Shown here piece by piece: positions 2,330 to 64,000 of a DNA stretch of 64,000 bases (positions are counted from its first letter, which is position 1; each line of letters begins with the position of its first letter). The stretch covers positions 1,024,001 through 1,088,000 of the forward strand of contig CM000432.1 of NCBI GenBank assembly GCA_000165345.1, given 5' to 3'. Under the pieces are notes generated by a model that was not told the origin of the DNA, ran no database searches, and was given only the letters and a program-made list of their open reading frames with translations. The position numbers and the translations under genes were made by a program.

Positions 2330-2557
2330 TGTGAACAAAAAAACAGTCAAATATCCTGGTTAAAAAGAAAAAAAAAAATTAATTAAAAAAGAGGAACTTG
2401 ATAATTTAATTGAATAAATTGAATTATTGTCTTAAAATATAATTTTTCTTTTTTAATTTAAGAAAAAAAAGTTATTCTTTCCAAATTAATCCTTTTTTTC
2501 CCCTTTGCCACCCCTCTTTATTTCCCTGCCAAAATAGTAACCAAGTGCCCCTTACGT

Positions 2558-2572
2558 GTTGGCGCCAAAATG
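2558..2572. promoter_or_regulatory. E2F-like element GTTGGCGCCAAAATG in the divergent promoter between the TPR gene (-) and the secreted gene (+)
   Basis: A palindromic TGGCGCCA core flanked by T/A runs. A second half-site CTGCCAAAAT lies at 2526-2535. Confidence 0.55.
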
Positions 2573-2815
2573 CAGCTAAATATTATGAATAGTCGAAAAA
2601 GACTATTATTAATAGAAGAAAAAAAAATTAAAATTAAAAATAAATTAGCTGTGATAATAGCAAATAAACTTTTAATAAAAAAAGAAAAGGAGGATTAAAT
2701 TAACTTTATTTCCTCAGGGATACAAGAATTGAGAAGTTTATGGATATAGACCAAATATATTAATCACTCCATATCGAGATTTTTTATAATTTAATTAATA
2801 TTATTACACGTAATA

Positions 2816-5170
2816 ATGACGTGTTTTACAAGCAGGTGTATACAGATATTGGTTTTTTCGTGCCTTTTATGTTTTTTTGCTGCAGTAGAATCATCTGTAA
2901 ATAAAATAGATACATCAGAGTTGGATTCTATATGGAATAATGATTTGATACTTGGTAGTGCTCCAAATGGTAAATTAAAATCGATTTCGAGTATGTTGGA
3001 TAGCTTTGCTTTGGAGCAGAAGCCAGTTATAAGTAAGAATATTGAGAAACCTAAAGAAGTTAAGACTGAGAATATTATTAAGAATGAATCAGTTAAACCA
3101 GTAACTAAAGTAGAAGAACCTTTGAAAGAAATTGTCGATATAATTGTAGAAGAAAAAGGAATTAATGAAAGAACTTACTTTCCTGAAAATGTTAAAAAAT
3201 TGGATGATCTTCCAAAACCATCATATTTTGAAAGATCTAAAGTATTATCTCTTTTGTCTAAAGATATGAGTTTGGATTTATTTACAAATGAAAATTTACC
3301 ACCAGAATATAGTTTTTTGGAGAGTATAGTTTCTATTAATAATAAAACGTTGGAAATGTCAGGCTTAGATTTATTTCAAGGTTTTGTATCTGATATTGAT
3401 TCAATTTGTAGACTTTCAGTTAAATGGTTTGAAAATTATCCAAAATTTGTAAAAGTTTTAAGGAAAGTTGATAGTCGAATTTCAGGTCATTATAATCCAG
3501 AAAGTAAAGAAAATCATTCAAATCTTGGTCAAAAGACTAGGCTTAGTAGAAGATTTACTAATGATTGGATTAACTTCCTTAATTTATTGAAAACCATTGA
3601 AATTGATTCTAAAACTTACAGACATAATAGAAGAATGCTTAGAAAGTATAAGGAAATTAACCACAAAGATCTCAAACAGTATCGTAGAAACATTTATAAT
3701 GAACTGCAATTATATAACAATTTACTTTTGAGTATACTTTTAAAGCTAAGCTTTTATATTCAATATATTGTTTACTTTCCAAATACTGGAAAGCTTTTTG
3801 GTGGAAATGAAGATTATAACTATAATAGTCAATTTAAAAAAAAATATCAAAAACAACTTTCTGATGAAAATGATGAATTAATCAAACTTAATAGAATTGA
3901 TATTTATGTAAACCGAATTCCAAGTGATATTCTTAGAGAGGTGAGAACTTCAATATCTTCTTGTTCTGGAGTTGTTAAAATTTTACATGGATATGGAATC
4001 CATCTAGACTCTACTCCAAATGATATTATCTCATTATATCTCCAATATAAACGTATTACAAGAATACTTTTGAATATTTATAATAGTGAAAGAAGCCATC
4101 TATTTGAAAAGCATAATAGTAATAATAATCTTTCATCAATAAATTTTAAATCCAACTATGACAATTATGGTAAACGCTCTAAGCACATTTTTGACCAAAA
4201 TTTTGTTCCAAATAAAATTGGTTTCAAACCATTTCAAATTCAAGAAGAAAAACAAAAGTTCCAAGAAAAAAGAAAACCTCAAAAATCAAAACATATAGAA
4301 AACTTTTCTAATGTTAATAAAGATCCTACTGAACTTAAATTTAACTATCTCTCAAAAGAATCAGCTGAGAAATATGTCAATGAAAATGAAAGAAATCTTT
4401 TCCAACTAATTAATCAAGATCTTACTACTAATAAATTTAATAAAGAAACGGGACTTAGCATTTCTAAAAAAAGACCATCTGGTGCCTCCGGGCTTGTTAT
4501 TTTCAGCCAGAAATATAATTTTGAATCCGAATATGACTGTACCGCCAAAATCTTAAATAATGGAAATGTTGAAATTAACTTTAATAAAAACATACTTTCT
4601 GGATTTAGTGGTAAGATTAGTACATGGTTTAAAAACAACTACCTAAAACACTTTTATAAAAACAAAAAAAACAATCTTATCCCACTTCAATTTAAACTCA
4701 TGATTGCTTGTCCATATGCTATTTCAAATCATTGCATGCAAAATAATTGTGGCGGCCTGAATGACGTGTTTATGTTGATATATTTAGTAGGAAGATTAAA
4801 AGGTTATTATGACGACTGGAAGATTGTTACTGAGTTTAATTCAATTACTGCAGATACAAATATGCAATGGAAAATTGTTTCAATCTTGATTCCAGATATT
4901 CAGTCACATTTAGGAAAAATGTGTCCTGTACAATCAAACTCATTAAAATCTCAAGTTCTAAAAACATCAAGACAAGTAGTTTTTAAAAGTCCCGTACAAT
5001 TTGAAAATCTTTCTGAAGAGTTTAAGTATGAGAATGCTAATATTAAAGAGTCAATTATAAGAAATTGTCTTAATTACGTACAAGAAGAAACAGTTATTGA
5101 GTTTTTAACAAAAGATGGAAGAGATGATGGAATGGCTATATGTAGAAATAATCATTTATATATAAGTTAG
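2816..5170 (+). CDS. secreted protein with an N-terminal signal peptide and no recognisable domain; 784 aa, likely lineage-specific
   Basis: ATG at 2816. A hydrophobic N-terminus (CIQILVFSCLLCFFAAVESS) is followed by a polar K/N/E-rich body with scattered Cys. It is a long uninterrupted ORF with AT3-biased codons consistent with its neighbours. Confidence 0.8.
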   Translation: MTCFTSRCIQILVFSCLLCFFAAVESSVNKIDTSELDSIWNNDLILGSAPNGKLKSISSMLDSFALEQKPVISKNIEKPKEVKTENIIKNESVKPVTKVEEPLKEIVDIIVEEKGINERTYFPENVKKLDDLPKPSYFERSKVLSLLSKDMSLDLFTNENLPPEYSFLESIVSINNKTLEMSGLDLFQGFVSDIDSICRLSVKWFENYPKFVKVLRKVDSRISGHYNPESKENHSNLGQKTRLSRRFTNDWINFLNLLKTIEIDSKTYRHNRRMLRKYKEINHKDLKQYRRNIYNELQLYNNLLLSILLKLSFYIQYIVYFPNTGKLFGGNEDYNYNSQFKKKYQKQLSDENDELIKLNRIDIYVNRIPSDILREVRTSISSCSGVVKILHGYGIHLDSTPNDIISLYLQYKRITRILLNIYNSERSHLFEKHNSNNNLSSINFKSNYDNYGKRSKHIFDQNFVPNKIGFKPFQIQEEKQKFQEKRKPQKSKHIENFSNVNKDPTELKFNYLSKESAEKYVNENERNLFQLINQDLTTNKFNKETGLSISKKRPSGASGLVIFSQKYNFESEYDCTAKILNNGNVEINFNKNILSGFSGKISTWFKNNYLKHFYKNKKNNLIPLQFKLMIACPYAISNHCMQNNCGGLNDVFMLIYLVGRLKGYYDDWKIVTEFNSITADTNMQWKIVSILIPDIQSHLGKMCPVQSNSLKSQVLKTSRQVVFKSPVQFENLSEEFKYENANIKESIIRNCLNYVQEETVIEFLTKDGRDDGMAICRNNHLYIS

Positions 5171-10490: not shown

Positions 10491-10819
10491 CTTCAAAAAA
10501 AGCTCCTTTTAACCAAAAAAAGTAAATAAAAATAATGATAAACAAACTTAATACTTTCTCTTCAAATTAAAAACCACTTTTACAGCTGTTTTGAGTATCC
10601 CACTTTTTTTGTTAATTCTGCTATCAAGATCTAAATCCCACCTTTCTTTTCTTTTTATTGTTGCTTTTCTACATCCTCTTTCCAAGCTAATCCAAATCAT
10701 ACAAGTACACACGCCAATCCTTTTCCTCAAATAAAATTCCAGAAAATATTTATTCCTTCACCTTCTACTCTATCACAAACCTTCAAGTATTTTTTGACCA
10801 TTAAACTTTAATGACGTAA

Positions 10820-10871
10820 GGCGCCAATAATTGTTACATATACCGGCATTCCACATGTAGGCGCCAGGCAA
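10820..10871. promoter_or_regulatory. two GGCGCC E2F-like elements (10820-10825 and 10860-10865), the second embedded in CCACATGTAGGCGCCAGGCAA, in the divergent promoter of the large scaffold gene (-) and the DEAH helicase (+)
   Basis: Direct reading of the sequence. Confidence 0.5.
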
Positions 10872-10930
10872 TTTTTTTCTTTTTTTCCTCGAGTCAAATA
10901 AAACATCCGAGGGAAATTAGTAGCAAAAAA

Positions 10931-13333
10931 ATGTCACAATCTGACATACTACCAATTTATCAGCATAAAAAGGAGTTATTGTCATTAATTCGAGAAAATG
11001 ATGTTTCTGTGATAGTAGGAGAAACAGGGAGTGGTAAATCAACTTTGTTACCAGCTTTCCTATATGAAGATGGGTTTGTACAAGATAAAAAGATGATTGC
11101 AGTAACTCAACCAAGAAGAATTGCTGCTATTTCATTGGCAGAGTATGTTGCAAAGCTACTAAAAACTAAAGTAGGAAATAAGGTGGGTTATTCCGTTCGG
11201 TTTAAGACTGAAGTATCCAAATACACCAAAGTTAAATATTTGACAGATGGAATGCTTATTAGAGAATGTGTTACAACCAATGGAGAGAGAAGTCCTTTTG
11301 AAAATTATTCTGTGGTTATTGTAGATGAAGCCCATGAAAGGTCAATTCGTACTGATTTTCTTTTAGGCCTTCTTAAAATGGAACTTTTAAATGGAAGTAA
11401 ATTAAAAGTTGTAATTATGTCAGCAACTTTTCAAAGCTCCAGTTTTGAAGATTTTTTTAGCTCCATCAATCCTCAATCTCAGTCTAATTCTGGAATCAAG
11501 CTTAAAACTGGTACTTATTCAGTTCCTGGGAGACAGTTTCCTGTACAATTAAATTATTTACCTGAACCTGAACTGGACTATTTAGAAGCAGTCATGATAA
11601 CAATATTAACAATCCACTTCTCAAAGCCAAAAGGTGGTGACATTCTTGTATTTCTCCCAGGTCAGGAAGATATTCATCATTTATATTCCAATTTGACAAC
11701 AATATCTAAACAAATTGAAGCCTTGTTTGAGCAACAAGGAGAAATCAGCTTTTATCTAGGTAAGCAGAAGTTTGAAAATATTGAAAGAATTCGATTATTT
11801 GTTCAATGTCTTTATGCTTCAATGCCTTCTGAACAACAAAGTAAAGTATTTGATATTCTTCCAGAAAATTATAGAAAAGTTATTCTTTCAACTAATATTG
11901 CAGAAACATCTGTAACTTTACCCAACATTGTTTACGTTATTGACACTGGCCTTGAAAAACTTAAGTTCTTTCAAAGTAACAATAATATTGATGCTTTGAT
12001 TATGAAAGAAATATCAAAAGCTTCTTCAATACAAAGAGCTGGAAGAGCTGGAAGGCTTAAGCCTGGAGAAGTTTATCGTATGTATACAAAACAAGCATAT
12101 TCAGAGTTTATGACTTCTCAAACTCCTGAAATATTAAGAACTAGTCTCTCTGAGACTTTGCTTGAACTTATTTATGTTCTTAATAACTATAAAACTAATA
12201 TATTTCAACAAGGTATTTCCAATTCATCCAATAATGACCATACTCTACTTATTGATCAACAACAAGTTTCTGTGAAAAAAATCCTAAATTTTCCATTTAT
12301 TAGTTATCCAACTAAGGATTCCATTCTTTCAACTCTCAAATTCTTATATAGACTCGAAGCTTTAAATAAAAGTGGAAATATTACTGAATTAGGTATTAAA
12401 CTAACTATGCTTCCAGTACCTCCATTTCTTGGTAAACTCATTTATCATAGTATTGAGTTTGGATGTACAAGTGAAGCAATCACTCTTGTAGCAATGCTTT
12501 CAGCTGAATGCTTGTTAGACTATTGCAATAGCAGCAATAATCCAAAAGATAAAGTCTATGGTTCATTACAAGAAAATCATTCTGATCAAGTTGGACCAAC
12601 TAAGAAAAAACCTAGATTTACTCATAATTCATCATCCAGAAATGACCAATCCTATAAAAATTACCTTAGATCAATTATGACAAAGTTTGGAGATCATGTT
12701 GGCTTAATTGAAACCTATAACACTTGGATTTCTTTGCAAAAAAGTTCTGGAAAAACCAATAATATACAAGGAAATATCATCTCTTCTAGTAACAATTATG
12801 AACAAATCAATTTTTGTAATTCTATTGGAATCTCACATACCAGTCTTTTAAGAGCAAAATCTATTAGAGAGCAGCTTATTGATATCACCACAAAGATATT
12901 TAACTTAAAAACTATTAACAGTTGTACTATGTTTACTTCTCTTAAACATAGTCATCCTGAATCCTTTGAATCTGAATTTAATCAAGAACAGAAACAGCAA
13001 AAGCAAGAGCAAGAACAAGAACAAGAACAAGAACAAGAAAATAAATGGATTCCCTTTTACAAATGCCTTACAAAAAGTTTCTGGCAAAATGTTGCCAAGC
13101 TAGATCCTAGTAATAATAAACAATACCTAACTGAGGTCAACAGACAACTTGTGAATATACATCCCACTAGCAGTGTTTCACATTTAAAGGAAAAACCTAA
13201 ATGGATCATTTTCACAGATATTATTCAAACTAAAAAGACTTATATACGAATTATCTCAGCCATTAATCATTTATGGCTCAATGACTACTGCTCCAGATGG
13301 TTCATCTCCACTGAAACAAACTCCAAACATTAA
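10931..13333 (+). CDS. DEAH-box ATP-dependent RNA helicase (DHX family)
   Basis: Helicase motifs are present: motif I GETGSGKST, motif Ia TQPRRIAA, motif II DEAHER and motif III SAT. Helicase-C and a C-terminal HA2/OB-like region follow (QRAGRAGR). An EQ(EQ)n insertion is encoded by a (CAAGAA)n microsatellite at about 13003-13038. Confidence 0.9.
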   Translation: MSQSDILPIYQHKKELLSLIRENDVSVIVGETGSGKSTLLPAFLYEDGFVQDKKMIAVTQPRRIAAISLAEYVAKLLKTKVGNKVGYSVRFKTEVSKYTKVKYLTDGMLIRECVTTNGERSPFENYSVVIVDEAHERSIRTDFLLGLLKMELLNGSKLKVVIMSATFQSSSFEDFFSSINPQSQSNSGIKLKTGTYSVPGRQFPVQLNYLPEPELDYLEAVMITILTIHFSKPKGGDILVFLPGQEDIHHLYSNLTTISKQIEALFEQQGEISFYLGKQKFENIERIRLFVQCLYASMPSEQQSKVFDILPENYRKVILSTNIAETSVTLPNIVYVIDTGLEKLKFFQSNNNIDALIMKEISKASSIQRAGRAGRLKPGEVYRMYTKQAYSEFMTSQTPEILRTSLSETLLELIYVLNNYKTNIFQQGISNSSNNDHTLLIDQQQVSVKKILNFPFISYPTKDSILSTLKFLYRLEALNKSGNITELGIKLTMLPVPPFLGKLIYHSIEFGCTSEAITLVAMLSAECLLDYCNSSNNPKDKVYGSLQENHSDQVGPTKKKPRFTHNSSSRNDQSYKNYLRSIMTKFGDHVGLIETYNTWISLQKSSGKTNNIQGNIISSSNNYEQINFCNSIGISHTSLLRAKSIREQLIDITTKIFNLKTINSCTMFTSLKHSHPESFESEFNQEQKQQKQEQEQEQEQEQENKWIPFYKCLTKSFWQNVAKLDPSNNKQYLTEVNRQLVNIHPTSSVSHLKEKPKWIIFTDIIQTKKTYIRIISAINHLWLNDYCSRWFISTETNSKH
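13003..13038 (+). repeat. (CAAGAA)n hexanucleotide repeat encoding (EQ)n inside the DEAH helicase
   Basis: caagagcaagaacaagaacaagaacaagaacaagaa. Confidence 0.9.
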
Positions 13334-13651: not shown

Positions 13652-16600
13652 TCATTCTTCCGTATCCAAAACACTTAAAGGAATTCTGTCATCCTGAATT
13701 AGCTCATCTATATGCTTAATATGCTTGTATCCTGGTGGAATAGAAATATTCATATTCTTGTTAAATTTTATTCTTCTCGGATTTCCACTTGCCGAATCGA
13801 AATTTTGAGATTTACGAGCTAAAATTAAATCTTTCTTTTCAGTAGATTGAACTTGAACAAGAAGGAATGAAGCATAATCGTTTAAAATATGATTCATTTT
13901 GGATTTGAAGCCGAAAAAATCAAGTTCCTTAAGACTTTCTATTATTGATTCCGAATATCCAAGATTAAACTTATGGCTATTAAACTCTTCATCAATATCC
14001 GATTTTAACAACTTATTCTTGAGCTTTGAAATAGTTAAATTCTTTATTGCCTTATAATCCCCTCCAAAACCATTCTTGAGGTAATTATTATATTTATCTG
14101 TAAATTTAGATATATATAACCCCAAATCATTAGCTGAGTAATCCCAAGACTCTAATTGAACACTCCATTTATAATAACTATCAAATGCCTCAATGAATGT
14201 CTTTAAACTCAAACTTTCACTTGTTGTTTTTAAAGACTCATTAAGCCAGTATGTATTGTAATAGGCATCATTTAAATATAAGATTCCGATATCAACATTG
14301 TCAGTATAAAAATCCTGAATATTCTTATAGATGATGATATCCAATAAAGCAATATTTGGACCAAATTCATCCGAACTTAATTTAAAATCCAAGTAACCAC
14401 TACTCATTACTTCATTTGTACAATTAATCTGACCACATTCCTCATTTAGTAACTTAAATAGATTCTCAATTGAAAACGTTTTATCAAGTTTCTTCATCGC
14501 TTTTTCACCAAAATTTGAATTAATATAATTCTTTGATAATTCAAAATAATCTGGACGATTATAATGATAAAATACTTTTTTATTAGCTGTACCACGAAAA
14601 TCCTTAATTGGGAAAGATCTGCTCTTAAATAATTTAAAACATTGCTCTTTTTTAGCTTTAATACCAACTCTAGTCGAAAATTCCTTTAATAATTTCTCTA
14701 ATTCTGCTCTATCCAAGTTACCTATAAATAATCCATCAATACATAAATTCTCCTTAAATTTTTTAAATTCATTATATAATTCTTGATAAGTTATTTGACT
14801 TAAACCTAAGTATTGCCGACCCAATGTTGGATAATTTGGAGCAGTTATTCTCCAAGAAAGTTCTCTTGCTTTAAGCTCTGAAGTTATTGTTTCTTTTTTT
14901 CTCATTAATAATCCTTTATAAATGAATAATGAGTCATTTAAAACTGCCTCTGTAATAACTTCTTCTGAATTTAATGATGAAAAGATGGTCTTAATAATAA
15001 TATATAAACTTGAACTATAACCACTTATATGTAAATCTATGCTTGGAACATTTGAAAGTTGTTCGGGACTATTTCTTGGACTAAATGTAAGCTTTGCATC
15101 TTGAATTAAAGGTAAATTTAAAGTATTATTCATTGAAATCACTAAAATATAGCTCAATATCAAAGTAATAAATTTAAAAGAATTAAAAGCTGAACTTAGT
15201 CTTAATATTCCTTTAAAATACGGCTGTTTCTTATCATTTCTAGCTTTATACCAAACATTAACATTTTCAGAAATAGAAATTTGTGTATCATGATATTTAC
15301 ATATAGCTAAACGACGATCTCGAACCATTTTGGTCTTAAAAATATCCCCAATTTTGGTTAATAAATAATAATTAGGATAGAATTCATTATAGCTTTCAAT
15401 GAATGTATTTAATTCAGTATCAACAACAGCATCATTTCCAGGATTTGGAGAATTTGAAGTACATTCCCAAATAAAGTCAACAAGTTTGAAGTCTTTTGGA
15501 GTATATGGATTGATAAATGGTCTAGAAAGTCCATTAATAATACCAAAAGATTCTTTAGTTTGTTTTAAACGATTGATTAGTCTTGGAGAGATCTTTTTAA
15601 TATTATATTTGATTTTAAGGAGTGGTTCTTCATAATGATATACGTACTTTCCATTGCAATCAATGATTCTATTTCTTGATGATTTACTAAAACATTCATC
15701 ATTACCAGAATTGCTGCTAAATGAGTAGAAACTAGTATTAAATACCTGATTTTCAACAATTTCGGTAATATTTTCAACATAATCTTCATAATTATTACTC
15801 ATTAAATAATTAGCTTGGTTTGAATTAACTAGAATGAGTATGTTTTCAATATCCAAGAAATTTAAGATTTTATTAAATTCTTCTAATTCAAGGTCGTTGT
15901 ACTTACAATATCTTTCCAATTTATGCCAAACATTATAATTAATCAAAGAACTGATTCTATCTTGAATATTTAATTTAAAATCAAACCAATTAAAGTTCAT
16001 ATAATTAGCAACACAGTTATTGATAAGAAATTCAAAGTATTCTTTTTTAATTTTTGTTTTACGTAAAAGTACCACAGAACTATATAATAATTCAAGAGTT
16101 TCCTCTAATAGAATTTGTTCAACATCAGATTCAACTTCAAACCAAACTAGAGCAAGTCTTTCTGCATAATATTCAACATTACAAGTTAATATAAGAGGAG
16201 AAATAGCATTTCTAAGTGAGCCAGAGTATTCTCCACAAAAGTAATGTTTGACCAAATATTCAAATAAGGGTATTCTATTTGAGCCTAATATGGCCCCCTT
16301 TTCGGAATCCAGAACAAATACAAATGAGATCTTGTTATCAACTCCTTTATATTCAACAAAATTTCCTAATAGACCTTGAGTATGTAAATTTTTCAATCCA
16401 ATATTATATCTCATAAGTTTGATATCTGTATTTAGATTTGGAATGGTTGAGAAATGTCTATTTACCAATGTAGTCAAATGTTCAAAAGTTAAAGAAGACT
16501 CAATAACTAACTTCATGATATTTGAACTATAGAATTTCTTTTTAAACTTCTTAATTTCTTTGACCAAATCAGAAATTACACAATTTTTCATTGTCATAAG

Positions 16601-17104: not shown

Positions 17105-17852
17105 TGCTTTCTCCTTTTCATCAATCTATTTGTATTTACTTTCATCATCCTTTTAATTTCTACTCTGTCCTTTTTTGACTTTTTATTTCATCTATTTTAA
17201 TAGAATTTTAATAGTCAAAAGTGGATTGCCCGCCCGAATTTTAATATAGATTAATTAATAAGTTTCCTAATTAATTATTATTAAATCAATAAATAATAAT
17301 AATTAATTAAAATGACTATGAATTGTTAGTTTATATTTGACATTTTTTATATTTTAATTTTAAGACGATATATTGAATATTCCTATATTTTGTATAAACA
17401 GAAGTAACAAAATAGTGTAATTTAAATAGCTAATATTAATTTCAACAGAATATTTGTAAGCATAGACCTGAGTTAATCCCCCTTTTATTCCAAAAACTTT
17501 GCAGTTGAATTTGGCTCTTTCAATCTCATGTTTTGACGAGTTTGAGCCAATATATCTAAAGTAGAATATAAAGAAAAATAAAAGTTATTGATATACTACA
17601 CATTACCCAACATTTGTTAATACAAATTTCTTTATTAATGATAAATTTTCTCCTATTTTGATTTTTTTTTTCATTCATGTTTAAGTTAAACATTTTAGTG
17701 ATTCGATTCATAGTTTCTAATTAGCTTCTTATGACGTTAAAACCACATTTGAATTTGACATGGGTCATTCTTTGAAATACAGTCCATATCTAATATACCA
17801 TAATTATCTAAAGCTTAATTTCATAATTAAATTTGTAATAAAAATATTATTA

Positions 17853-19223: not shown

Positions 19224-19410
19224 TATCTTTTTTCATATGTACTTGTAGTCAAATCTCCATTAGATATGCTTAGTTACTAACAATCTATCAGAATTTTTCC
19301 AAGTATGCTCTTTATATTTTTATATTCTTTTTTCTAATTTATTAATTCTCTAAAATACCTTCAAAACATCTCATTTCTGCCTTTTGTCTTAAATGACATT
19401 TCACTTTTTG

Positions 19411-19438
19411 CCACATGTAACCTATTTTGGCGCCAATG
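19411..19438. promoter_or_regulatory. CCACATGTA plus TTTTGGCGCCAATG composite in the divergent promoter of the ARO-like gene (-) and the secreted acidic gene (+)
   Basis: The GGCGCC core is at 19429-19434. The same CCACATGTA 9-mer occurs at 10851-10859. Confidence 0.5.
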
Positions 19439-20889: not shown

Positions 20890-21423
20890 CATTTTTTCAC
20901 ATTTAGATTAATTATTAACTAATATAGGCAAAGAAAAATGTGTGCTTAGATTTAAAATAACAAAATGATTAATTCTAAATCAAATCATATGATTACAGCA
21001 ACTACAGTATGATTATATAAAAATAATTCAATTTTAATATATAATATCTATTTGCTTAAAGTACATATCGCAATTTCTATCTTATTTTCTTACATGGAAT
21101 AATTATTACATGCATATTTGAAGTTCGGGCTTTAGCGCCTTCATTATGAGGGTAAATTATTTTTCTTATGTATTAAAAATTGTATTAGTTACCCACTGCA
21201 TAACTTTGTTTGAACTTTGGGGGAAAGAGGGAAAACAATTTATCCTTAAGCGAATAATATGTAAATTGATAAGTTTGGAATATTAAATCGCTATAGGAAT
21301 GAGAAAATAAATTTGATAATTGTGTGTGTGTTTTTTTTCAATTAGCCTCTAAAATACAGAATCTTTGGAATTCCCAGAATTTACTTGGTTTAATAAATTA
21401 ATTCGAATTGGGATTTGAAAAGA

Positions 21424-24400
21424 ATGATACACGATGTTTTACTTTCTCTTACAGGGTTTGTTGGGGATAAGATTGAAGTGGACCCTGTAGAATTTACAAG
21501 TAACTCAATTTCTTTGTATAGTTATAAATATAGATTGAGACTCAAATCTAATATTGAGGAATATTTATCAGAAACTGAAAAATTATTAGTGGACAAGATT
21601 TTGCATATTTCTAGCAACTTCTATTCTGTTAATGAATTTGTTAAAAGAGTTCTAGGCTCTGTGTACAACAAGCATAGTAATTATAATTCAAATACAAACA
21701 CGAATCCAGCTTTTGGATCAAAATTTAACCAAGAAAAGAGCCATCAACTTCAAATTAGAGCAGATCTTAAGAAAAGATTACTCAGAATTAACCCTGTTGG
21801 ACTATATATACATGCAGTAGCAAAATGCATGCAGGAGTATATTCTTCGATTTCTTCAGAAGATTAATCAGTTAGAAAGAGAAGTTTTTGAAAATCCGAGT
21901 TTGCCTCTTACTTTTGTACTAACTTCAATAACAAAACCCTCCAGAGTTTTAGATAATTTTATGGCATTCATTGATGAGTGGTATAATCTTGCTCTTAATT
22001 CAAGAGTAGATTCTACATGTAAATTCTCGTTTTCAAATATGTTTATTACAATGGAAAAATTTGAAAATTTGTGTGAAATATATATAAGTATTCCATGTGG
22101 ATATATATTGGATTATTTCTATTTGGGAGTGTCTTCTGGAGATTTACTTCAGGAATCAGTGAGCAAAAACTTTCTATTGGTATGTAGTCGAATCTTTTGC
22201 TATCAAATGATAAATTGGATTATTTTAGGAAAGTTGGTTGACCCTTTTGAAGAGTTTATTGTCGGAAGGTTTTCCATTTCAGCTCCTACTAATTCATTAA
22301 ACTCCCAAAAGGATGCTAACTTTTCAAACTCATTTTCAATCTCTTCAAATGATAGGTAAGTTTGAGTTTTTGGTTAAATTGAAGAATAACCATTTTGGAA
22401 TCTTTTTAATTTTTACAAATCATTCTAATTAATCTTTAATATAGCTGTATTGAAGCCTTGGACTTGGATGAAAATTTATGTAAACTTTATCGTGAGGAGG
22501 AAATTTCCCATTGCGGGGTTTTTGAATGGGAGGGACTATTTTATACCAGATATGAATCCTTTACGAAGAAATTCTTTACAGTAAAGTTCCTTTACAAAAT
22601 CTTTGGTATTGGGAAAATTGTAAGTAAATCTTGTTCTTCCTTAGATAAGGAAGATTTTTATTTGTATTTATTCTCAAACAATCCTCATTTCCTTCTAATT
22701 TTTAGGTAAGACTTCTAAATAGATATGGGAATAGTAATATTAGAGATAGAATGAATGAAACAGGGTTTGAGAGTTACATTAATCAAATTTCAAACATTCT
22801 TAATGAATCGTTTCCGCATATTCAGTCCCAGTTGGAAGGGTTTCTTGAAAAATTCAGAAGGGAGATTTCTTTTATTATGTATGAATCAATAATTTTAAGA
22901 AGCCAAAACAACATAGCACACAAATTTGCATATAAAAATCTTTTTTCTCAAAACATCAAATTAATCCGAAATTTATATTTCCTTGGGTATTCTGACATTT
23001 TTCTTCAACTAGATAATTCCATTTTCTACAAAAATCTAAGCTATGATGACTCCCAAACACGTAATACTAACTTTACTGAACAGTCTGAATTCATCTCAAA
23101 CACTTGGAAAGAACTTTTGTCTTTATTCAAATTAGGCAATATTACCTCAAGTATTCATAATGATTTCTCAAACTCCAGAATTAACTTATGCTGCGACACA
23201 TTTGATCTTTTCAACTTTAACCTAAACGAGCTCGAATTAATTGACATGTTTAATTGCTCCCTTACAAATAACAATATACTCCTTTTTGGCGGGAAATCTG
23301 AAATGCATGCAGACCAATATTTGCATTCTGAAAATGAAAAATTAAAGAATGAAGGTGATGAGGGCCATGAAGATTATATTTCTGAAGATTTTGGTATTAC
23401 AGATTGCAACTTTGATTTTCCTTATGAAAATTTTCATGCAATTTCAATCTCTAGAGTCAAGTGGCCAATTCGTATCATAGATGGCTTTAATCATATATTA
23501 GAATGCGTTTCTTCTGTAAACGTAGTTTCATCTTTATTGTTCGCAGCATCTAATAGTATTCCATTTATTGGCGATGGAATTTGTACTTCTCAGGAGGATG
23601 GTTCAGGACACGATGGTGAGTTTTTAAGACTTACGTGGAGCTTTAGATTTAAGGATGAAAATAAACAAGTTATGGAATTCTGTATTAAGCTGTATTGGCA
23701 TACAAAACACTTGAGATCTTTGTTAAATACTGAAAAGGAGTATTCACTATTAAAAACCAATTTACTTGAAGTTCCCAATCCCTTTATCAATTTAATGGAA
23801 GGCGATTTATTCGCATATAGACTTAGGATTTTGTTCAAACAATCAAATATTTCAATATATATGGAGCCACTAAAAAATACCCTTCCTGGCTCAAATTCAC
23901 TCTTTGGAAGACCAACTCAGGTACTGAGTATTCAACATATTAATATTGATATTTGTTTACCTTTGCATACTTCGTCATGTTTTATTCATCTACTAAGACA
24001 TAATGATCACGCAAGATTCGAAAAGGAGAAAGAATTTAAGGTTTTTAAATGGTGTCATATAAGTTCCTCTAATAATTCAGATGTAATTTCTCAGCTAGCA
24101 AACTCTTGCAGCATGGGAGCGTCTTCAAGTACAAACTATAACTTTAATTTATTAAAAAACGTCTCGTTAAATTCTTATCTAAGTGGAATAAGCTTTGATC
24201 ATCATATATTTAGATTAAGAATTATCCAGAAATTTGATTGGCCGTTACCACTTTTATTCACAAAAAAGAATATGGAACATTACTATAATCTATTTGATTT
24301 TTATTGGCTATTTTTCAGAACATATAATGGGCTTGAAAGGATTTGGAGAGAGGCTTTCAATCTAAGATATGGAAATAGAAGAGGGGCATTCACTTCATTT

Positions 24401-25390: not shown

Positions 25391-25860
25391 TTACAAATAT
25401 ATTGAAAGTGTATAAAATATTCTAAACATTTATTTAAATTGTTTTTTTCTATTTTTTAATCCTCTATTTGAAATGTCAAACTTGTAAAAATTATTTTCAA
25501 GAGTTTCCCGCCCAAACACATACCGGTGTATGGTACCGAAAAAAAATAATAATTGAGGGGAAATAAGATATGTAAATTGTGAATAAAAGTATATATTAAA
25601 AATAAGTTTAGGTATAGGAAAAAAGAGGAATCAATCAGAGAAAAAAAATTATTTAAATAAAAATTTAAATAATTGAACAAGAGTGAAGAATTGTAAGTGC
25701 TGGGAGTTACATCCGGATTATCAATTTACTCATTCTTTTCTTTAAATATTGCAAAAAAAGAAAAAGGGAGAGCCAAAAATATCAGTCTTTGAAAGTCTTT
25801 TTCATATAAAATTCTTTTGATTTTATTTTTGTGTATGTGTATTTGCAACTTTTAATTGAA

Positions 25861-30021: not shown

Positions 30022-30036
30022 TTTAGGCGCCAAATG
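30022..30036. promoter_or_regulatory. E2F-like TTTAGGCGCCAAATG in the divergent promoter of the 3-exon gene (-) and the RING-H2 gene (+)
   Basis: Direct reading of the sequence. Confidence 0.5.
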
Positions 30037-34384: not shown

Positions 34385-35129
34385 TTTTCTTGACAAAATC
34401 TCACTAGATTTTTTCCCCTAATCAATCAAACTTTGTATAGTTATTGAAAATAATCCATCTAATCTAATATATTCTTACTTTTTTTAAATACTTTTTACTC
34501 AATTACTATATTTTTGTTTAAATCAATAACATAAGTTAAAATATCACAAATTTGTTCTTAGAAAAAATATCAAGTACTCTGGTAGAACTGTTTAAGATGA
34601 ATTTATATTAAAATAATCTCCACTTTTCTTTATAACTTAACAAAATATTAATTATTATTTGTTTTTTTTTAATTATTATTTTCAGAAAAAAAATAGTTAC
34701 TAAAGAGGGGCGAAAAGTGGGGAAACATTACAAAATGTCAACTTGTACTTTTTAAGCTTCAAGAAATATATAGTAATATTAATAATAATAATTTTTTAAA
34801 TTAGGCCTACTCTTCTCATAGAATAATAATATATAAAAAATAATTAATTTATGATTTTTTCACTTTGAAGATTTATAAATAAATTTTCTACATAAATGAA
34901 GAAGAAATTAACTAAATTCATTTTAAAAACGGGAATAATTACCAAAAATTCTATTCTTTACAATATTTGTATGTACCTTAAAAATAAAAATAAATGCATG
35001 AATTTAGATAATTATAGGTCTATTGAACTTGCTTGTTTTAATTATTCTTATACAGATATTTTTGCTTCCTTAATATCCCACAATTATTGCCATTTTACTA
35101 ATATTTTCGGTTAAAGTTATAAAGCAAAA

Positions 35130-35148
35130 GGCGGGAAATGTGCCCGCC
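35130..35148. promoter_or_regulatory. palindromic double E2F-type site GGCGGGAAA-TGTG-CCCGCC in the ORC1 (-) / Hook (+) divergent intergenic region
   Basis: GGCGGGAAA is the reverse complement of the canonical E2F consensus TTTCCCGCC. An inverted CCCGCC copy lies 4 nt downstream. A further GAGGGGCGAAAAG lies at 34706-34718, nearer ORC1. Confidence 0.55.
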
Positions 35149-35684
35149 GAGTGTGTATTGGTGCATTATTTGCACAGGAAAAATACACATGGGGAATAAG
35201 AGATGATAAATAGAAAACAAAAAAGATAAATGTAATATACGGATATACGAATATATATATACATATATATGTATAAATTTATATATTTATATATGAATTA
35301 AGAATTTTAATTATAAGGATCGTCAGCACAAGAATTGTTGCAAAACTGATATTAAAGACACGATTAATTTTGAATAAGAGAATTGATAAGAAAGTGAGTA
35401 TACAAAAACAGAAGGAAAAGTGTCTGAGAAATAAATTAAATATATAAGAATATATGAAGCTGGTTAAAATTGAGTTGCATTTTTCTGCGTATTCTTAACT
35501 TTGAAAGATAGAGAAATTTGAACTATTTTTAATAAGCTGGGTGCATTCATAGAATTGGCTTTATTTTTATCATGCAATATCTGTATTTTTTATAATTAAA
35601 AAAAGGATTAATAAAATATTAAGAAAAATATAAAGTAAACAAAGTAAACCGATTATTTTAAGCAAAAATAAACAGGAATATAAA

Positions 35685-37430: not shown

Positions 37431-38260
37431 AACAATTTTTTTTGTCATTTAACTTCAAGCCTAATTTCATTGCTCTTGTATTAATTATTAATACATAAAA
37501 TCGCATATACAGAATTTTAATATTAATGGTTTAATCATCTTATTGATATTTTTATAATTAATATTTAGCCTAATTATAGTTCATAAAAAGTTTGATTTAT
37601 TCTCTTTTTTTCTTTTTTAAAAAATTGTATTTGTTTCTTTCCTAAACTGTTTTTTTAAATAATTAATATATAAAAATTAATAATATTAACATGATAGTAT
37701 TAAAGGGATTGTTTCAGAACAGTTATGTAAAAACCTAATTTGAACAATCAAATAATTTCTCTCAGAAGCTACAATTATAAATATTCTAATTTAACCTTTA
37801 AGCTAAAAATAATCTAATTTTCACGATTCCTACATTTAATAACATTCATTATATGAAAAAAACTATAGTAGGAAAAAAATTTGTTTCTATTACGTGTAAT
37901 TCAAAATATTAAAGTACACACAAATGTAAATTGTATTAAACAATTGGTATTGAGATATTTAGTTGTTATTTACGTTTCAATAGAAGCTTTGTGAATTCAT
38001 TAAGTTTACCCACAAATTGATAATAAATGTTAAGGGTATTGAGTTTTCAAGAAAATTTAGATTTATGAATTAATGTGATTTAGAAATAATGCTTCAAATT
38101 AACTACAGTAATTTATTTCATTATCTTAATGATTAATTATAAATACTATTATGCAAAAAAAAAAACGGATTGATACGATCCCCCTCAAAAACCACTTGTT
38201 TCATTATATTGCAATTATTTAATATTCAATTAATGTCTTAATAATAATTTAAAGCTAACG

Positions 38261-38269
38261 TTGGCGCCC
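38261..38269. promoter_or_regulatory. TTGGCGCCC element about 225 nt upstream of the DAG-kinase-like gene
   Basis: Direct reading; the GGCGCC core is at 38263-38268. Confidence 0.4.
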
Positions 38270-38347: not shown

Positions 38348-38395
<48 letters not shown>

Positions 38396-40002: not shown

Positions 40003-40609
40003 TCTAATTTGGAATTTTTAAACAGCATTTTTTCACAGCTTTAAGATATTGACAAAAGTACTATAATTTCTTGCGCAGTGTAACACTGTAACGATGCAAT
40101 ATTAAAATAGTACATATTTTATTTTTAATTATTTTGCTTTAAGGCTTCGTCATAGGCCTAGATATAACGTCTTTTGAACTTTGATTAGACATTTATAACT
40201 ATTAATTACTAATTGTTAATATTTTTAAAAACCTTTTTCTCTTTAATAATGCTGGTAATAACATACTTAGTAATACAACAAATCTGAATTTTGGTCTCTT
40301 TGGCAGTATTGACGCACTTCAACTCTTCGATATTAATTTATTAATATTACATTTTAAGCCATTTTGGCATAAATCAATCAATTTACATGCATGTTCTGGC
40401 GCCATGTCAATTTAATAGTAAAAGTTGGAATTAAAGAAAATAATTACTTAATAGGCAAATATGATGGGATATTGAAATAAATAAACTTAGGAATTTAAGA
40501 GAATTTTGGGGGTAAAAGTAGTAATTGGAGCTTTTTTTTTAAGAAACAAGTTGCTAATAATTGATAAATTAAATTTAATACTAGCTATTTATTCTTTGAT
40601 TTTTGTTTT

Positions 40610-43481: not shown

Positions 43482-43522
43482 GGGCGCAAATACATGTTTG
43501 AGGGGCCAGTTTTGGCGGCAAT
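43482..43522. promoter_or_regulatory. GGGCGCAAA and TTTGGCGGCAAT elements upstream of the 40610..43150 gene (-)
   Basis: Degenerate E2F-like sites 330-370 nt upstream of the ATG at 43150. Confidence 0.4.
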
Positions 43523-45496: not shown

Positions 45497-46122
45497 CTTC
45501 TTGGTAGGATAAAAGTAAATTAGAAATTTCAAACCCAATCAAACTTGCTATATTGCTAACCATAACATAAACTAGAAATTTGTTTTAACCTTCAAGATCA
45601 TAGCCATAATCTATTAGCAAATATTTACTTGAGATATTTAATTATATGTGAATAAATATATATATTTTAAAGTGCTAAAAAAATACTTAAAATAGCTTTA
45701 AGGTTGTCTGGTAAGTCTCTTTACATTAATATGAGTTAATTTCCACTAATTTTGCTTTCAACTAAATGTTATTTTAAAAAATAATAAAATATTAGTAATT
45801 AGTTTTTATTTACATACATTTTATTATTACTCACAGTATTATCTGACAGCCGCCACACAATACACGTAATAATTAATTAATAGTAATTGAAATACAAAAA
45901 TAAATAATCATAGTAATTATTATTGTATTAGAAAATAAATAACAACTTGGGAGATTTAGGAAGCTCAGTCTTTAAGTTATTGATATCTGAATTTTAGAAG
46001 CTTGAGTCTTAATAGTCCAAATTGAATTCAATAATTACAAAAAATAAAAATATTAAGATTGATTACTAAAGAAGAAATGCAGTTTATTTCATGTAATATT
46101 TGATATGAATAATACAAAATAA

Positions 46123-48630: not shown

Positions 48631-48943
48631 TTATAAATTAATCTAAAAAAAAACGGAATTAGTAAACGAAGTAATAATTATTTATATATTTACTTTAGTT
48701 AAATTAATTATTAATTTTTACACCACACTTTATAATGTTTATTTGTTATTTGTAATTTTCAAATTTCAAGTAATTTATTTATTAAACCTGTAAAAATATA
48801 TGAAGGATCAACAAAACCTTAGTTATAAACACTAGTAGGCTAGATTTTGCCAGTATTAGATCATAAATAAAAATCTTTAAATTCTAAATATAATTAAATT
48901 TGCTTTGTTTTATACTATACAAATTAATATTTAAAAACAAAAT

Positions 48944-50533: not shown

Positions 50534-51454
50534 TTCTATACTATTTAATGCAAATTAGTCATTCACAATTAGTATAATTAAATTACAAAATGTAGTTCTG
50601 TAAAGGTTTAATTCTATTCAATAATCTAGTATTGTATATAGGACAAAATATTTTTTCCATTCATTAAGCCCTGGCAATTCCTAAGGAAAACTACTCATAA
50701 CTCTACACTTTTGTTTAAAGGACTAATTAAATTCTAAATATTCCCGCCAACAGATAATTTATTCATTCCCTCTATTGCATGCAATTTAATGGAGAGATTA
50801 AAAAATCAGACCCTAATTCGATAATCGAGAATTTTGAATATTTAAATTAATAGCTTAAGTACCTCAATTTTTAACATTTGCAATAATTAAGTATTTTATC
50901 TCGATATATTTAGAGATACAAGCAATTAACTTATTTTTCACTGTTTAGAGTGTTAAATGTCAATTACTAAGTTATAATCAAACTTTTTTTTTTAAATAAG
51001 TCATAAACACAATATAAGATTTATTTTAAAGAATGATAACTATCACAATATTAATTTTGAATGTGATTGTTCTTGTGCTTGTGTTAGTTTTGTTAGTACT
51101 TGCAGTTAAGAAAAATTAGGAAACAAACAAACAGAAGGAAAACATAACAAAATAAACATTAAGCTCAAACTTTAGAATAACAATCAAAGAAATTGAAGCA
51201 ACTCAATATTTTCAGTCAATCCTTGTTGATATAGATCGTCAAACTTAATCTTTTCGTCACTTCTTGTTTTGTTTCATAATTAATTGAAATACCAATATTC
51301 AAATTTATAATTTTGGAAGCCAATACTTATATTCAACTTAATTATAATTTGTCTTCAGCTCAAGCCATGCTTTCTCTGATAAATCTTATTCTAAGGCTGA
51401 AAAGAAAGTGGAAAACAAAGATAATGTAACATTATTAATTATATTGAACAACCT

Positions 51455-52315: not shown

Positions 52316-52702
52316 ATAGTATTAAACTGCAAAAAACTATTACTCTAGTTTGAAAACCTAGAATATACTTTAGTGTAAAAAAAATTCAAGGGAAAAATTA
52401 TTTACCAAAGCTTAATATTAATTTATTCCAAAATTTTGTGTGTATTATTATTTATTTTTATCATTGGATTTTAATGTGTGACATTTTATTTTCATGGAAA
52501 TTACGTGGTCATTTTAAGTAGATAAATAAATTATTAAAATATTTCTATATAATAATAATAAATTAATAAGATAATATAATTTGAGTTAGTTTCTTTTTTA
52601 AAGTCTAATTAGGTATTTCTATTCAACATCTTACTTAATGCTATTTTCAGTATAATTTTTTAGAATAAAAATTTCTATTAAATATAAGAGATTTTGCCTA
52701 TG

Positions 52703-55504: not shown

Positions 55505-55788
55505 ATAAACAATCTTACTTATTCTTAATCCTTCAGTCCGAGTAATAACAAAATTATCTTACACATCTACATGCAGCCCATAAAATAAATAAATACTTCA
55601 ACCTTTTCAAATTAATTTATATACTGCTATAGCTAAACCACTTTGTAATTCTAAACAACACACCCACACTAATTAACTCATAAGAATGGTTGATTTTTCC
55701 TCGTCTTATCTTTAATGTTTTTGAGATTTATTTACTTTGAAATTTGTTTAGTTTTTTTTTTCTTTCCCATGTTGAGGATGCTAAAGCA

Positions 55789-55802
55789 TTTTCCCGCCAA
55801 AA
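55789..55802. promoter_or_regulatory. TTTTCCCGCCAAAA, an E2F-consensus-like site, in the divergent promoter of the RING-PHD gene (-) and the OTU gene (+)
   Basis: Direct reading of the sequence. Confidence 0.5.
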
Positions 55803-56026
55803 CTTGGCTTACTGAATTTGTAAATGTCAAAAAATTGGAATTGACAAAAGGATCAGACAAATTCAGATTTAGTCGAATTTTTAATTTTTAGGGACTAAAA
55901 TATCAGAAAACCTGTTATAATTTTTGATTAGACGTATCTATTAGTTTAGATTGAAGTTAATGTTTCAAATACTATTTAAAAGGAACTGGTAATTAATTAA
56001 TAAATATTAAAATTCGTAATAAAAAA

Positions 56027-57106: not shown

Positions 57107-57393
57107 TTTAAGATTAGCTTTCAATGCCTTGTTATAATTTTTTTCATTTATTTTGCATGCATTTTTCTCTACCACTGCTTTCCCCCCCAAATTGATTCTT
57201 TATTCATCTTTCTTATGAAATGTATCAAAAAAAAAATTTGCATCAGGCATTATTAAGTAATCAAAATCTATATGTTAACAAGTGAAGAAATTTATCTAAT
57301 TTAATATTCTCTATTTCCTTTCATATTATTTCTAATATTTTTAATTGCACTAATTTGTTTCAAAAGCCTTTAAAGTAATTTCTGATTATTAGT

Positions 57394-57407
57394 TTCCCGC
57401 CAAAACT
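57394..57407. promoter_or_regulatory. TTTCCCGCCAAAAC about 145 nt upstream of the ABC transporter ATG
   Basis: This is the same motif class as 55789, 25504 (TTTCCCGCCC), 50740 (ATTCCCGCCAAC), 61736 (CACCCGCCAACAT) and 17225 (TTGCCCGCCCGAA). Confidence 0.5.
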
Positions 57408-61584: not shown

Positions 61585-61927
61585 AAGTGATTATTCCTGT
61601 AAACATGAATAATTGGTCAATAATCAATTTTTTTTAAGATAAAAAACAATGAATTTATTGTTTGTAGTTTTTTTCTAAATTTATCCCTATATTTTCTTAT
61701 TATTAAATTTGTCCCTCTTTAATTTATTTTACACACACCCGCCAACATAATTTTATATATTTTATAGTGGGATCTTATAAATTAAAGGATAAATTAGTAA
61801 TATACTAAATTGTAATTAATTTCTTTTATAAGCCTCATAATTTAAACCGGAAGGTGGAAAATTGGAATATAAGCAACTAATTAAGGATCTAATTTTTTTT
61901 TCTAAGTATTATTTGGGGTAGCCAAAT

Positions 61928-63610: not shown

Positions 63611-63943
63611 CTTAACTATTATTTGACTTAAATATTGACTAACCAATTTAATAATATCTTATTTCATATACTTAATTCTACTGAAATTACTGTACCTCTA
63701 TTCTAGAACTTCACATTCTAGTAAACAACCTATAAGCCATTTGTGGCAATATCATTTTAATTAAAAATATGGAATTATTTCCCTAAATAATCTTAAAACC
63801 AACATTAAAATGGAGAACAAGACAATTAATAATTAAAAATTACATTTTTAATACCTCTTTTAGCCCCTTTTTTTTTTTTTTAAAAAATATCTGATTGTGG
63901 AATATTTTTTAACTGCATGTACAATATAATAATTAAAATTAAT

Positions 63944-63955
63944 TGGCGCAAAATT
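63944..63955. promoter_or_regulatory. TTGGCGCAAAAT element at the window end, likely in the promoter of the next gene downstream
   Basis: Lies about 330 nt after the transporter stop codon; CTGCATGTACA lies 25 nt upstream. Confidence 0.3.
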
Positions 63956-64000
63956 TTCAAACATGTGGGGATTTAACTTGATTTCAGAATCTGTTCGTCA

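Follow-up and report, generated by a model that had tools for sequence, protein, structure and literature searches.

The closest described system is the E2F-like motif family of Cryptosporidium parvum, which comprises motif 3 ([C/G]GCGC[G/C]) and motif 4 (GGCGGG) and is summarized as TGGCGCCA (Oberstaller, Joseph and Kissinger 2013, BMC Genomics 14:516). The same study credits Bankier et al. 2003 with noting the motif earlier on chromosome 6, and reports that no other upstream motif of C. parvum is as over-represented as the E2F family (PMC3734150). The E2F motif occurs in 161 of 200 co-expression clusters (PMC4117751) and dominates sporozoite ATAC-seq peaks; over half of the open-chromatin peaks are annotated as bidirectional promoters (bioRxiv 10.1101/2025.01.17.633476). 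C. parvum encodes two or three E2F genes and two DP genes (PMC3734150, PMC4117751, bioRxiv 10.1101/2025.01.17.633476). Both gene types are reported to persist in Cryptosporidium and to be missing from the other apicomplexans examined, and E2F expression profiles do not follow all target clusters (PMC3734150). The C. parvum E2F proteins include cgd1_1570 and cgd6_1430. According to a 2025 review, most regulatory components are without functional validation (PMC12246861), and we found no report of E2F/DP binding or occupancy in Cryptosporidium (ChIP, EMSA or binding array) in the searchable literature. Two further systems are relevant. The canonical eukaryotic E2F/DP site, TTTSSCGC with a 12-bp form TTTSGCGCSAAA, is found in the promoters of E2F targets in animals and plants. 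The promoters of C. parvum long non-coding RNAs carry E2F and ApiAP2_1 (BGCATGCAH) motifs (Li et al. 2021, PMC7840661).

We analyzed a 64-kb stretch of DNA, hereafter the window. The window is C. parvum: the diacylglycerol kinase it encodes matches C. parvum Iowa II EAK87416.1 exactly, and synteny extends to the orthologues in other Cryptosporidium species. An earlier note had cited the motif in support of a Cryptosporidium lineage; the proteins confirmed this independently and more strongly. The motif in the window is the already published E2F-type element, the commonest upstream element of C. parvum, and its sites are instances of the Oberstaller family, with the same species, sequences, upstream location and top abundance. 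Nothing essential differs. What our analysis adds is site-by-site conservation over seven species in 64 kb and a few atypical sites. The finding is correct and unremarkable: work on C. parvum from 2003–2013 onward had already described the motif, how abundant it is and which factor probably binds it, ATAC-seq reinforced this in 2025, and as a discovery the finding carries little weight.

We observed seven GGCGCC sites in the window against 0.38 expected, and nine CCCGCC/GGCGGG sites against 0.74 expected; no dinucleotide shuffle of the whole window gave more than three of either, in keeping with the claim that such GC hexamers are rare by chance. Strict sites were defined as [C/G]GCGC[G/C] or GGCGGG, and GCCGCC, GGGCGC and GGCGC were treated as relaxed variants, which may differ from the strict element. 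Intergenic DNA bordering gene starts (11.4 kb) contained 14 strict sites (0.35 in shuffles). An unbiased de novo k-mer ranking returned GGCGCC, GCGCCA, CCCGCC and CGCCAA as the four most enriched intergenic hexamers, and the top intergenic 8-mers included GGCGCCAA, TTCCCGCC and CCCGCCAA. Nearly all intergenic GC runs of at least 6 nt were the E2F-type motif. These short GC-rich intergenic sequences are a genuine, non-random feature that is conserved throughout the genus.

The seven GGCGCC positions reported earlier (2561, 10820, 10860, 19429, 30026, 38263, 40398) were all exact, and the related sites were located within 2–4 nt of their reported positions (CCCGCC at 17229, 25507, 50743, 55793, 57396 and 61738; GGGCGC at 43482, GGCGGC at 43514 and GGCGC at 63945). 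The description of the seven as TGGCGCCA-type palindromes held in full for three; three others read AGGCGCCA and one TGGCGCCC. The full form is TTT[G/C][G/C]CGCC(A)AA, either as a palindrome, TTGGCGCCAA, or asymmetric, TTTCCCGCCAAA. The 5' flank was rich in T and the 3' flank in A, as at the canonical E2F site.

The sites were concentrated outside genes. Fifteen of the 16 GGCGCC and CCCGCC/GGCGGG sites were intergenic, though intergenic DNA is the more AT-rich part of the window. SGCGCS occurred six times in 5' intergenic DNA and never in 50.2 kb of genes (P = 4e-5, Fisher), and GGCGGG/CCCGCC eight times against once (P = 1e-5, Fisher), so the hexamers are not equally frequent in coding sequence; together, the strict sites numbered one in the genes. 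TTTSSCGC had eight matches, seven in 5' intergenic DNA and one in genes. Convergent (3'/3') intergenic DNA held one site in only 2 kb, an underpowered comparison. The element had been claimed for nearly every 5' intergenic region, and we observed it in 15 of the 17 regions bordering gene starts (Table 1). Twelve carried strict sites and three only relaxed ones (20890–21423, 43151–43522, 45497–46122); neither strict nor relaxed sites were detected in the remaining two (48631–48943, 52316–52702). The six divergent promoters said to carry a site all did, but the window has seven divergent regions, and the omitted one (45497–46122) contains GCCGCC only. A distance of 100–400 nt upstream of start codons was typical, with exceptions at 10860 (71 nt) and 35130/35143 (542–759 nt from the start codons on either side). 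The site at 40398 is not upstream of a start codon at all; it lies between two convergent gene ends. The gene models are sound, but the support that the sites were thought to lend to gene-start assignments is limited. One site in a divergent region cannot tell which start is right, and because a conserved site occurs in a 3'/3' region and a strict site in an exon (23288), a site alone is no marker of an annotated start. Asymmetric CCCGCC sites in tandem regions showed no orientation preference toward the downstream gene (4 to 2). Palindromic sites seemed to favour divergent promoters, and asymmetric ones tandem regions (5:1 against 3:5), but the sample was too small for any claim.

Table 1. 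E2F-type sites in the window, their surroundings and their counterparts in other Cryptosporidium species
Position	Strand	Sequence	Location	Counterparts
2558..2570	.	GTTGGCGCCAAAA, palindromic	Centre of divergent promoter 2330-2815	TTGGCGCCAAA(A)TGCA kept in C. meleagridis, C. ubiquitum, C. canis, C. felis (alignment A2)
4733..4756	.	TGCATGCAAAATAATTGTGGCGGC, relaxed GGCGGC site beside TGCATGCA palindrome	Within coding sequence 2816-5170	Module kept in C. meleagridis, C. felis
10810..10867	.	58-bp block with two GGCGCC (10820, 10860); first abuts TGACGTAA	Divergent promoter 10491-10930	ATGACGTAAGGCGCCAA...CATTCCACATGTAGGCGCCA aligned across window, C. meleagridis, C. ubiquitum, C. canis, C. felis (alignment A3)
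17225..17239	+	ATTGCCCGCCCGAAT	125 nt upstream of start of gene 13652-17104 (-)	CCCGCC in C. meleagridis, C. ubiquitum, C. canis, C. xiaoi
19425..19437	.	TTTTGGCGCCAAT	Divergent promoter 19224-19941	C. meleagridis, C. ubiquitum, C. canis; GGCGCG in C. xiaoi
21131..21142	.	TTTAGCGCCTTC, one base degraded	Upstream of gamma-tubulin-complex gene (start 21424)	GGCGCC in C. meleagridis, C. ubiquitum, C. canis; CGCGCC in C. felis
23283..23311	.	TTTTTGGCGGGAAATCTGAAATGCATGCA	Exon 2 of gamma-tubulin-complex gene; only strict site inside any gene	E2F-type and palindrome elements both kept in C. meleagridis, C. ubiquitum, GC-rich C. canis
25504..25516	+	TTTCCCGCCCAAA	354 nt upstream of adaptin gene (25861)	
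30023..30035	.	TTAGGCGCCAAAT	Divergent promoter 29391-30236; gene boundary ~29391 checked	GGCGCC in C. canis, C. felis; GGCGGC in C. meleagridis
35126..35149	.	Inverted pair AAAAGGCGGGAAATGTGCCCGCCG	1.3-kb divergent region, ORC1/Cdc6-like gene (31778-34384, -) / gene 35685-37430	Pair conserved in C. meleagridis, C. canis, C. felis
38260..38269	.	GTTGGCGCCC	228 nt upstream of diacylglycerol kinase gene (38491)	Kept in C. meleagridis, C. canis, C. felis
40386..40405	.	CATGCATGTTCTGGCGCCAT, E2F-type site beside ApiAP2_1-type palindrome	607-bp 3'/3' intergenic region 40003-40609	Conserved in C. meleagridis; two GGCGCC flanking CATGCA in C. canis
43482..43522	.	GGGCGC (43482) and TTTTGGCGGCAAT (43510-43522), relaxed	332-364 nt upstream of gene 40610-43150 (-)	TTTTGGCGGGAAA in C. 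canis, GGCGGGAA in C. felis
45844..45859	+	TGACAGCCGCCACACA	Divergent promoter 45497-46122, seventh divergent region	Identical 16-mer in C. meleagridis and GC-rich C. canis
50740..50783	+	ATTCCCGCCAA, then TGCATGCA 33 nt downstream	Upstream of gene 49714-50298 (-)	
55789..55802	+	TTTTCCCGCCAAAA	Divergent promoter 55505-56026	TTTTGGCGGG (reverse complement) in orthologous C. canis divergent region
57393..57405	+	TTTCCCGCCAAAA	154 nt upstream of ABC transporter gene (57550)	TTTTGGCGGG in orthologous C. canis region
61736..61746	+	CACCCGCCAAC	190 nt upstream of amino-acid transporter gene (61928)	Likely C. canis counterpart TTTTGGCGGG at L017:3949
63942..63953	.	ATTGGCGCAAAA	Downstream of window's last gene, upstream of DHFR-TS (start beyond window end)	TTTGGCGCCAAAA in C. 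canis, 133 nt upstream of DHFR-TS start

We compared the orthologous loci of C. meleagridis, C. ubiquitum, C. canis, C. felis, C. xiaoi and C. andersoni; for the 50–64 kb part the comparison was with one species, through one partial C. canis contig. In five to six other species, the promoters of the orthologous genes had sites that aligned with those of the window, while the surrounding intergenic sequence diverges. Such aligned sites were present in C. meleagridis, C. ubiquitum, C. canis and C. felis, and in alignments A2 and A3 the sites fell inside the best-conserved blocks. The excess over shuffles was also present elsewhere (C. meleagridis, 9 vs 0.21; C. ubiquitum, 5 vs 0.10; C. felis, 11 vs 1.89). 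Strict hexamers were found in 3 of 10 regions of C. xiaoi and 1 of 4 of C. andersoni, which could be read as motif loss. We rejected this reading and attribute the low counts to the strict definition, since both species have shorter, 5-nt cores (GGCGC, or CCGCC followed by A) in almost all 5' regions and hardly any in genes (0–1). The conservation of individual sites across the genus supports their being functional, and the conserved sites, such as the pair upstream of ORC1/Cdc6 and the 58-bp block in Table 1, offer specific targets.

We consider it highly probable that the sites are E2F/DP-type promoter elements of C. parvum. They fit the published family (TGGCGCCA, [C/G]GCGC[G/C], GGCGGG; PMC3734150), as had been proposed, and resemble the canonical E2F/DP site in having a CG core between a T-run and an A-run and in occurring in palindromic and asymmetric versions. 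As at canonical E2F targets, inverted paired sites lie upstream of an ORC1/Cdc6-type gene (the encoded protein has ORC1/Cdc6-type AAA domains), and a site lies upstream of DHFR-TS, just past the window end. In contrast to canonical E2F, the motif stands ahead of most genes regardless of what they encode, its binding by E2F/DP is putative, and according to the literature an Rb-family partner has not been identified in apicomplexans.

We infer that a heterodimer of a parasite E2F winged-helix protein and its DP partner binds the CG-rich core, and the same inference extends to the direction of any effect on transcription; Pfam scans detected no E2F or DP winged-helix protein encoded within the window. 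Such binding would help to define an open, nucleosome-poor promoter ~100–450 nt upstream of the start codon, and in a divergent region one central site, or a pair, could serve both genes. Since genes of all kinds carry the motif upstream, among them those for transporters, adaptin, a lipid kinase and RING proteins, a classical cell-cycle role cannot be assumed. The motif lies ahead of most genes and not of replication genes only, so it probably serves to define promoters generally, for transcription in early and asexual stages, and not only as a cell-cycle switch.

An alternative is that the sites are promoter motifs bound by another factor, for example a C2H2 zinc-finger protein (an Sp1-like GC-box reader) or an uncharacterised protein. 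In Cryptosporidium, E2F/DP binding is putative (review, PMC12246861), and GGCGGG overlaps GC-box-like sequence: GCCCGCCCG at 17228 and CCCGCCC at 25507 contain the CCGCCC core. However, the Sp1 core GGGCGG/CCGCCC was present at only these two of the 19 sites and absent from the other 17, and both the palindromic GGCGCC form and the flanks of the sites, rich in T on one side and in A on the other, fit E2F, not Sp1. Moreover, the C. parvum AP2 domains assayed on protein-binding arrays did not bind this motif, according to the literature (PMC4117751), and its abundance coincides with the retention of E2F/DP in the genus (PMC3734150, PMC12246861). We therefore regard another factor as improbable.

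It is very improbable that the sites act mainly through DNA or chromatin properties instead of sequence-specific recognition, as GC islands in AT-rich DNA that exclude or position nucleosomes or mark boundaries or replication origins. In the intergenic DNA (~24% GC), the sites stand out as the principal GC-only runs, and published ATAC-seq places open chromatin at them (bioRxiv 10.1101/2025.01.17.633476). Yet other GC-only hexamers were not similarly enriched, and the exact hexamer with its flanks is kept in C. canis (loci ~52% GC, intergenic DNA 46% GC), where a GC island would not stand out. The search for GC-rich hexamers could itself have produced the pattern, by chance or through base composition: the earlier note pooled several related patterns after the fact, and the relaxed GGCGGC/GCCGCC class taken alone was not significant (P = 0.09). 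This reading, of negligible probability, is already refuted by the shuffle counts, by the unbiased k-mer ranking, by the near absence of the motif from coding sequence, which is richer in GC, and by the conservation of sites between orthologous regions. The reading of the sites as E2F/DP-type promoter elements is the one we retain.

Three sites are atypically placed (4733..4756, 23283..23311 and 40386..40405), and all three adjoin a TGCATG(CA) palindrome; they may mark unannotated transcripts. At the in-exon site at 4751, matches in C. ubiquitum and C. canis were rejected as orthologues because they fall elsewhere in the protein; C. meleagridis and C. felis alone have true counterparts. We ruled out a hidden protein or RNA gene at 40398: the intergenic region 40003–40609 contained no ORF of at least 40 aa and no tRNA, and no Rfam family was detected anywhere in the window at gathering thresholds. 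An unannotated transcript is the remaining idea. Like the C. parvum lncRNA promoters, the three sites pair both palindromic motifs outside annotated upstream regions; unlike those of Li et al. 2021, they are known from their nucleotide sequence only. It is conceivable, though rather doubtful, that these conserved pairs form a distinct composite module driving antisense or non-coding transcripts, with the exonic two preserved by selection at the DNA level. The three E2F and TGCATGCA modules could thus point to transcripts missing from the annotation.

We used an ORF-based gene model refined with gene calls from orthologous loci (see table), which upheld the earlier note's extent, to ~29390, for the minus-strand gene starting at 28424. 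The window has a GC content of 22–33%, with long ORFs dense on both strands and short intergenic regions between them. The 25 gene models partition it into genes (50.2 kb), 5′ intergenic DNA adjacent to one or more gene starts (11.4 kb) and 3′/3′ intergenic DNA between convergent gene ends (2.0 kb). The DEAH-box helicase (10931–13333) has an exact match on a 1.1-Mb chromosome of GCA_048859185.1, and its closest named relatives are all from Cryptosporidium (from C. tyzzeri at 97% and C. meleagridis at 92% to C. andersoni at 48% identity). The diacylglycerol kinase (38491–40002) is identical to C. parvum Iowa II EAK87416.1; therefore, the window is C. parvum or indistinguishable from it.

The earlier note had described E2F-type GGCGCC or CCCGCC elements in nearly every 5′ intergenic region. 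Its seven GGCGCC positions were all exact, and its other site coordinates were right within a few bases. GGCGCC occurs seven times in the window (dinucleotide shuffles: mean 0.38, maximum 3), and CCCGCC/GGCGGG nine times (0.74 expected). We observed six copies of [C/G]GCGC[G/C] in 5′ intergenic DNA and none in genes (P = 4e-5, Fisher), and eight copies of GGCGGG/CCCGCC against one in genes (P = 1e-5, Fisher). The equal frequency in coding sequence that the note had set against its own reading is therefore not what we observed. The canonical octamer TTTSSCGC behaved similarly (seven versus one). This bias exists despite lower G+C in intergenic (24%) than in coding DNA (30%). Together, strict sites (either of these two hexamer classes) number 14 in 5′ intergenic DNA, compared to 0.35 in shuffles of those regions. 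When every intergenic k-mer was ranked relative to a first-order Markov expectation, with no motif preset, GGCGCC, GCGCCA, CCCGCC and CGCCAA took ranks 1–4, followed by other known Cryptosporidium motifs (ACACAC, CATGCA, GAGGGG); the top 8-mers include GGCGCCAA, TTCCCGCC and CCCGCCAA. The statistical case is stronger than the note's author could know. Alignment of 17 sites gave an extended form: T-rich, [G/C][G/C]CGCC, A-rich.

Among the 17 5′ intergenic regions, 12 carry a strict site and three only a relaxed one (GGCGGC/GCCGCC, GGGCGC or GGCGC), so "nearly every" was a fair description. The other two (48631–48943 and 52316–52702) have no E2F-type site, even relaxed. Both are short spacers between tandem genes, and C. 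xiaoi also lacks a site in the region matching 48631–48943; they might lie inside polycistronic transcripts, which have been described for C. parvum. Other details needed correction. All seven GGCGCC sites are present, and the full TGGCGCCA palindrome ascribed to them occurs at only three. The divergent promoters, given as six with a site in each, number seven, and the omitted one (45497–46122) carries only GCCGCC. The spacing of 100–400 nt upstream of start codons does not hold for the pair 35130/35143 (542–759 nt from the flanking starts) or for 10860 (71 nt from one start), and site 40398 falls between the ends of two converging genes rather than upstream of a start codon.

In sequence, these elements are classical E2F/DP sites, and the finding is wholly anticipated by the literature. 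As the earlier note proposed, they match the dominant upstream motif of the genus: Oberstaller et al. 2013 (PMC3734150) reported that, across the C. parvum genome, no upstream motif is as over-represented as E2F, in the forms 5′-TGGCGCCA-3′, core [C/G]GCGC[G/C], and GGCGGG, and cited earlier observations of it on chromosome 6 and in front of genes for replication and glycolysis. A follow-up paper found it in 161 of 200 co-expression clusters (PMC4117751). E2F is more prominent than any other motif in sporozoite ATAC-seq peaks, and the majority of those peaks were annotated as bidirectional promoters (bioRxiv 10.1101/2025.01.17.633476). A 2025 review ranks it first in abundance among factor-binding motifs and emphasizes the missing functional validation (PMC12246861). 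Among apicomplexans studied, Cryptosporidium is reportedly the sole genus retaining E2F and DP genes (PMC3734150, bioRxiv 10.1101/2025.01.17.633476, PMC12246861). The observation is confirmed and its interpretation supported, for an element that is already known.

Conservation was assessed in 20-kb loci orthologous to the surroundings of two anchor genes, taken from C. meleagridis, C. ubiquitum, C. canis, C. felis, C. xiaoi and C. andersoni, and, for the rightmost third of the window, in one C. canis contig only. Gene order is kept, and sites recur in the corresponding intergenic regions, often with identical flanks. Strict sites in 5′ intergenic DNA numbered nine in C. meleagridis (shuffle mean 0.21), five in C. 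ubiquitum (0.10) and 11 in C. felis (1.89). In the alignment of the divergent promoter 2330–2815, no block is better conserved from the window to C. felis than TTGGCGCCAAA(A)TGCA. In promoter 10491–10930, a 58-bp block (10810–10867) with both GGCGCC sites is kept in five species, while its surroundings are barely alignable. An apparent scarcity in C. xiaoi and C. andersoni did not hold: with a 5-nt core (GGCGC or CCGCC, A usually next), there is a site in nearly every 5′ region, compared to 0–1 in ~34 kb of C. xiaoi genes. The element is thus genus-wide, with a shorter core in more distant lineages.

The C. canis loci (L009, L014 and L017) have ~51–52% GC, versus 24–30% in the other species examined and ~40–43% in C. 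felis, a large compositional shift inside a syntenic region. C. canis keeps the sites and their A/T flanks at aligned positions. This comparison is especially informative because a GC hexamer is not unusual at ~52% GC, yet the sites are kept.

Recognition by another protein, such as an Sp1-like zinc finger, is disfavoured by the E2F-like flanks and by the presence of a GC-box core in only 2/19 sites. Base-for-base retention in GC-rich C. canis likewise counts against an effect on chromatin through composition alone. Chance is excluded by the shuffle tests (GGCGCC, CCCGCC, strict sites) and the Markov ranking.

The sites are probably bound by an E2F/DP heterodimer, which would help to mark out open promoters. 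In a divergent pair, one central site would act for both genes; the element may activate or repress. ORC1/Cdc6-type genes and DHFR-TS are textbook E2F targets. The ORC1/Cdc6-like gene in the window has two sites in inverted orientation that are conserved as a pair. A site at 63942–63953, just inside the window end, lies upstream of the DHFR-TS start beyond it, and in C. canis a perfect TTTGGCGCCAAAA precedes the DHFR-TS start codon by 133 nt (contig L017:1778). The motif also lies upstream of transporters, adaptin and a lipid kinase; therefore, its role is more likely that of a general promoter element than one confined to the cell cycle.

Features placed by the gene models, and E2F-type sites beside TGCATG(CA)
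Feature	Position in window	Location or strand	Source or retention
Single gene with intron	17853–19223		Gene calls in orthologous loci
Single gamma-tubulin-complex gene with intron	21424–25390		Gene calls in orthologous loci
Gene starting at 28424	Reaches ~29390	Minus strand	Gene calls in orthologous loci
DHFR-TS	Just past right end		Gene calls in orthologous loci
E2F-type site + TGCATG(CA)	40386–40405	3′/3′ region	Kept in C. meleagridis, C. canis
E2F-type site + TGCATG(CA)	23283–23311	Inside exon	Kept in C. meleagridis, C. ubiquitum, C. canis
E2F-type site + TGCATG(CA)	4733–4756	Inside exon	Kept in C. meleagridis, C. felis

Three sites fall outside the upstream region of any annotated gene, and each has the ApiAP2_1 motif, a TGCATG(CA) palindrome, no more than 20 bp away (see table). 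TGCATG occurs within 40 bp of 4/19 sites compared to 0.95 expected (P ~0.015), an association that is post hoc and, in the two exonic cases, confounded by protein conservation. In GC-rich C. canis, the retention of 23283–23311 includes A/T-ending codons. Because exactly these two motifs rank top upstream of C. parvum long non-coding RNAs (Li et al. 2021, PMC7840661), the three modules may be candidate promoters of unannotated or antisense transcripts.

Promoter 2330–2815 has a second conserved block, TTTGCCACCCCTCTTTATTTCCCTGCCAAAATA, at 2470–2510 (columns ~250–305 of its cross-species alignment A2), holding a G-box-like CACCCCTC and an interrupted E2F-like TTTCCCTGCCAAAA. The 58-bp block, whose conservation extends from C. 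parvum as far as C. felis, reads ATGACGTAAGGCGCCAA...ATACCGGCATTCCACATGTAGGCGCCA. Its first E2F-type site is immediately flanked by TGACGTAA, a half palindrome of bZIP/CRE-like type, and ATACCGGCATTCCACATGTA occurs between its two sites. At 45844–45859, TGACAGCCGCCACACA joins a GCCGCC core to a CACACA (AP2_2-like) tail; C. meleagridis and GC-rich C. canis have the identical sequence, which may represent an element of its own and not a weak E2F site. ACACGTAA/TTACGTGT has four intergenic copies (2552, 2806, 37890, 45862) versus ~0.1 expected, and one in a gene (23057); one of the intergenic copies is next to the E2F-type site at 2561, and another immediately precedes the start codon at 2816.
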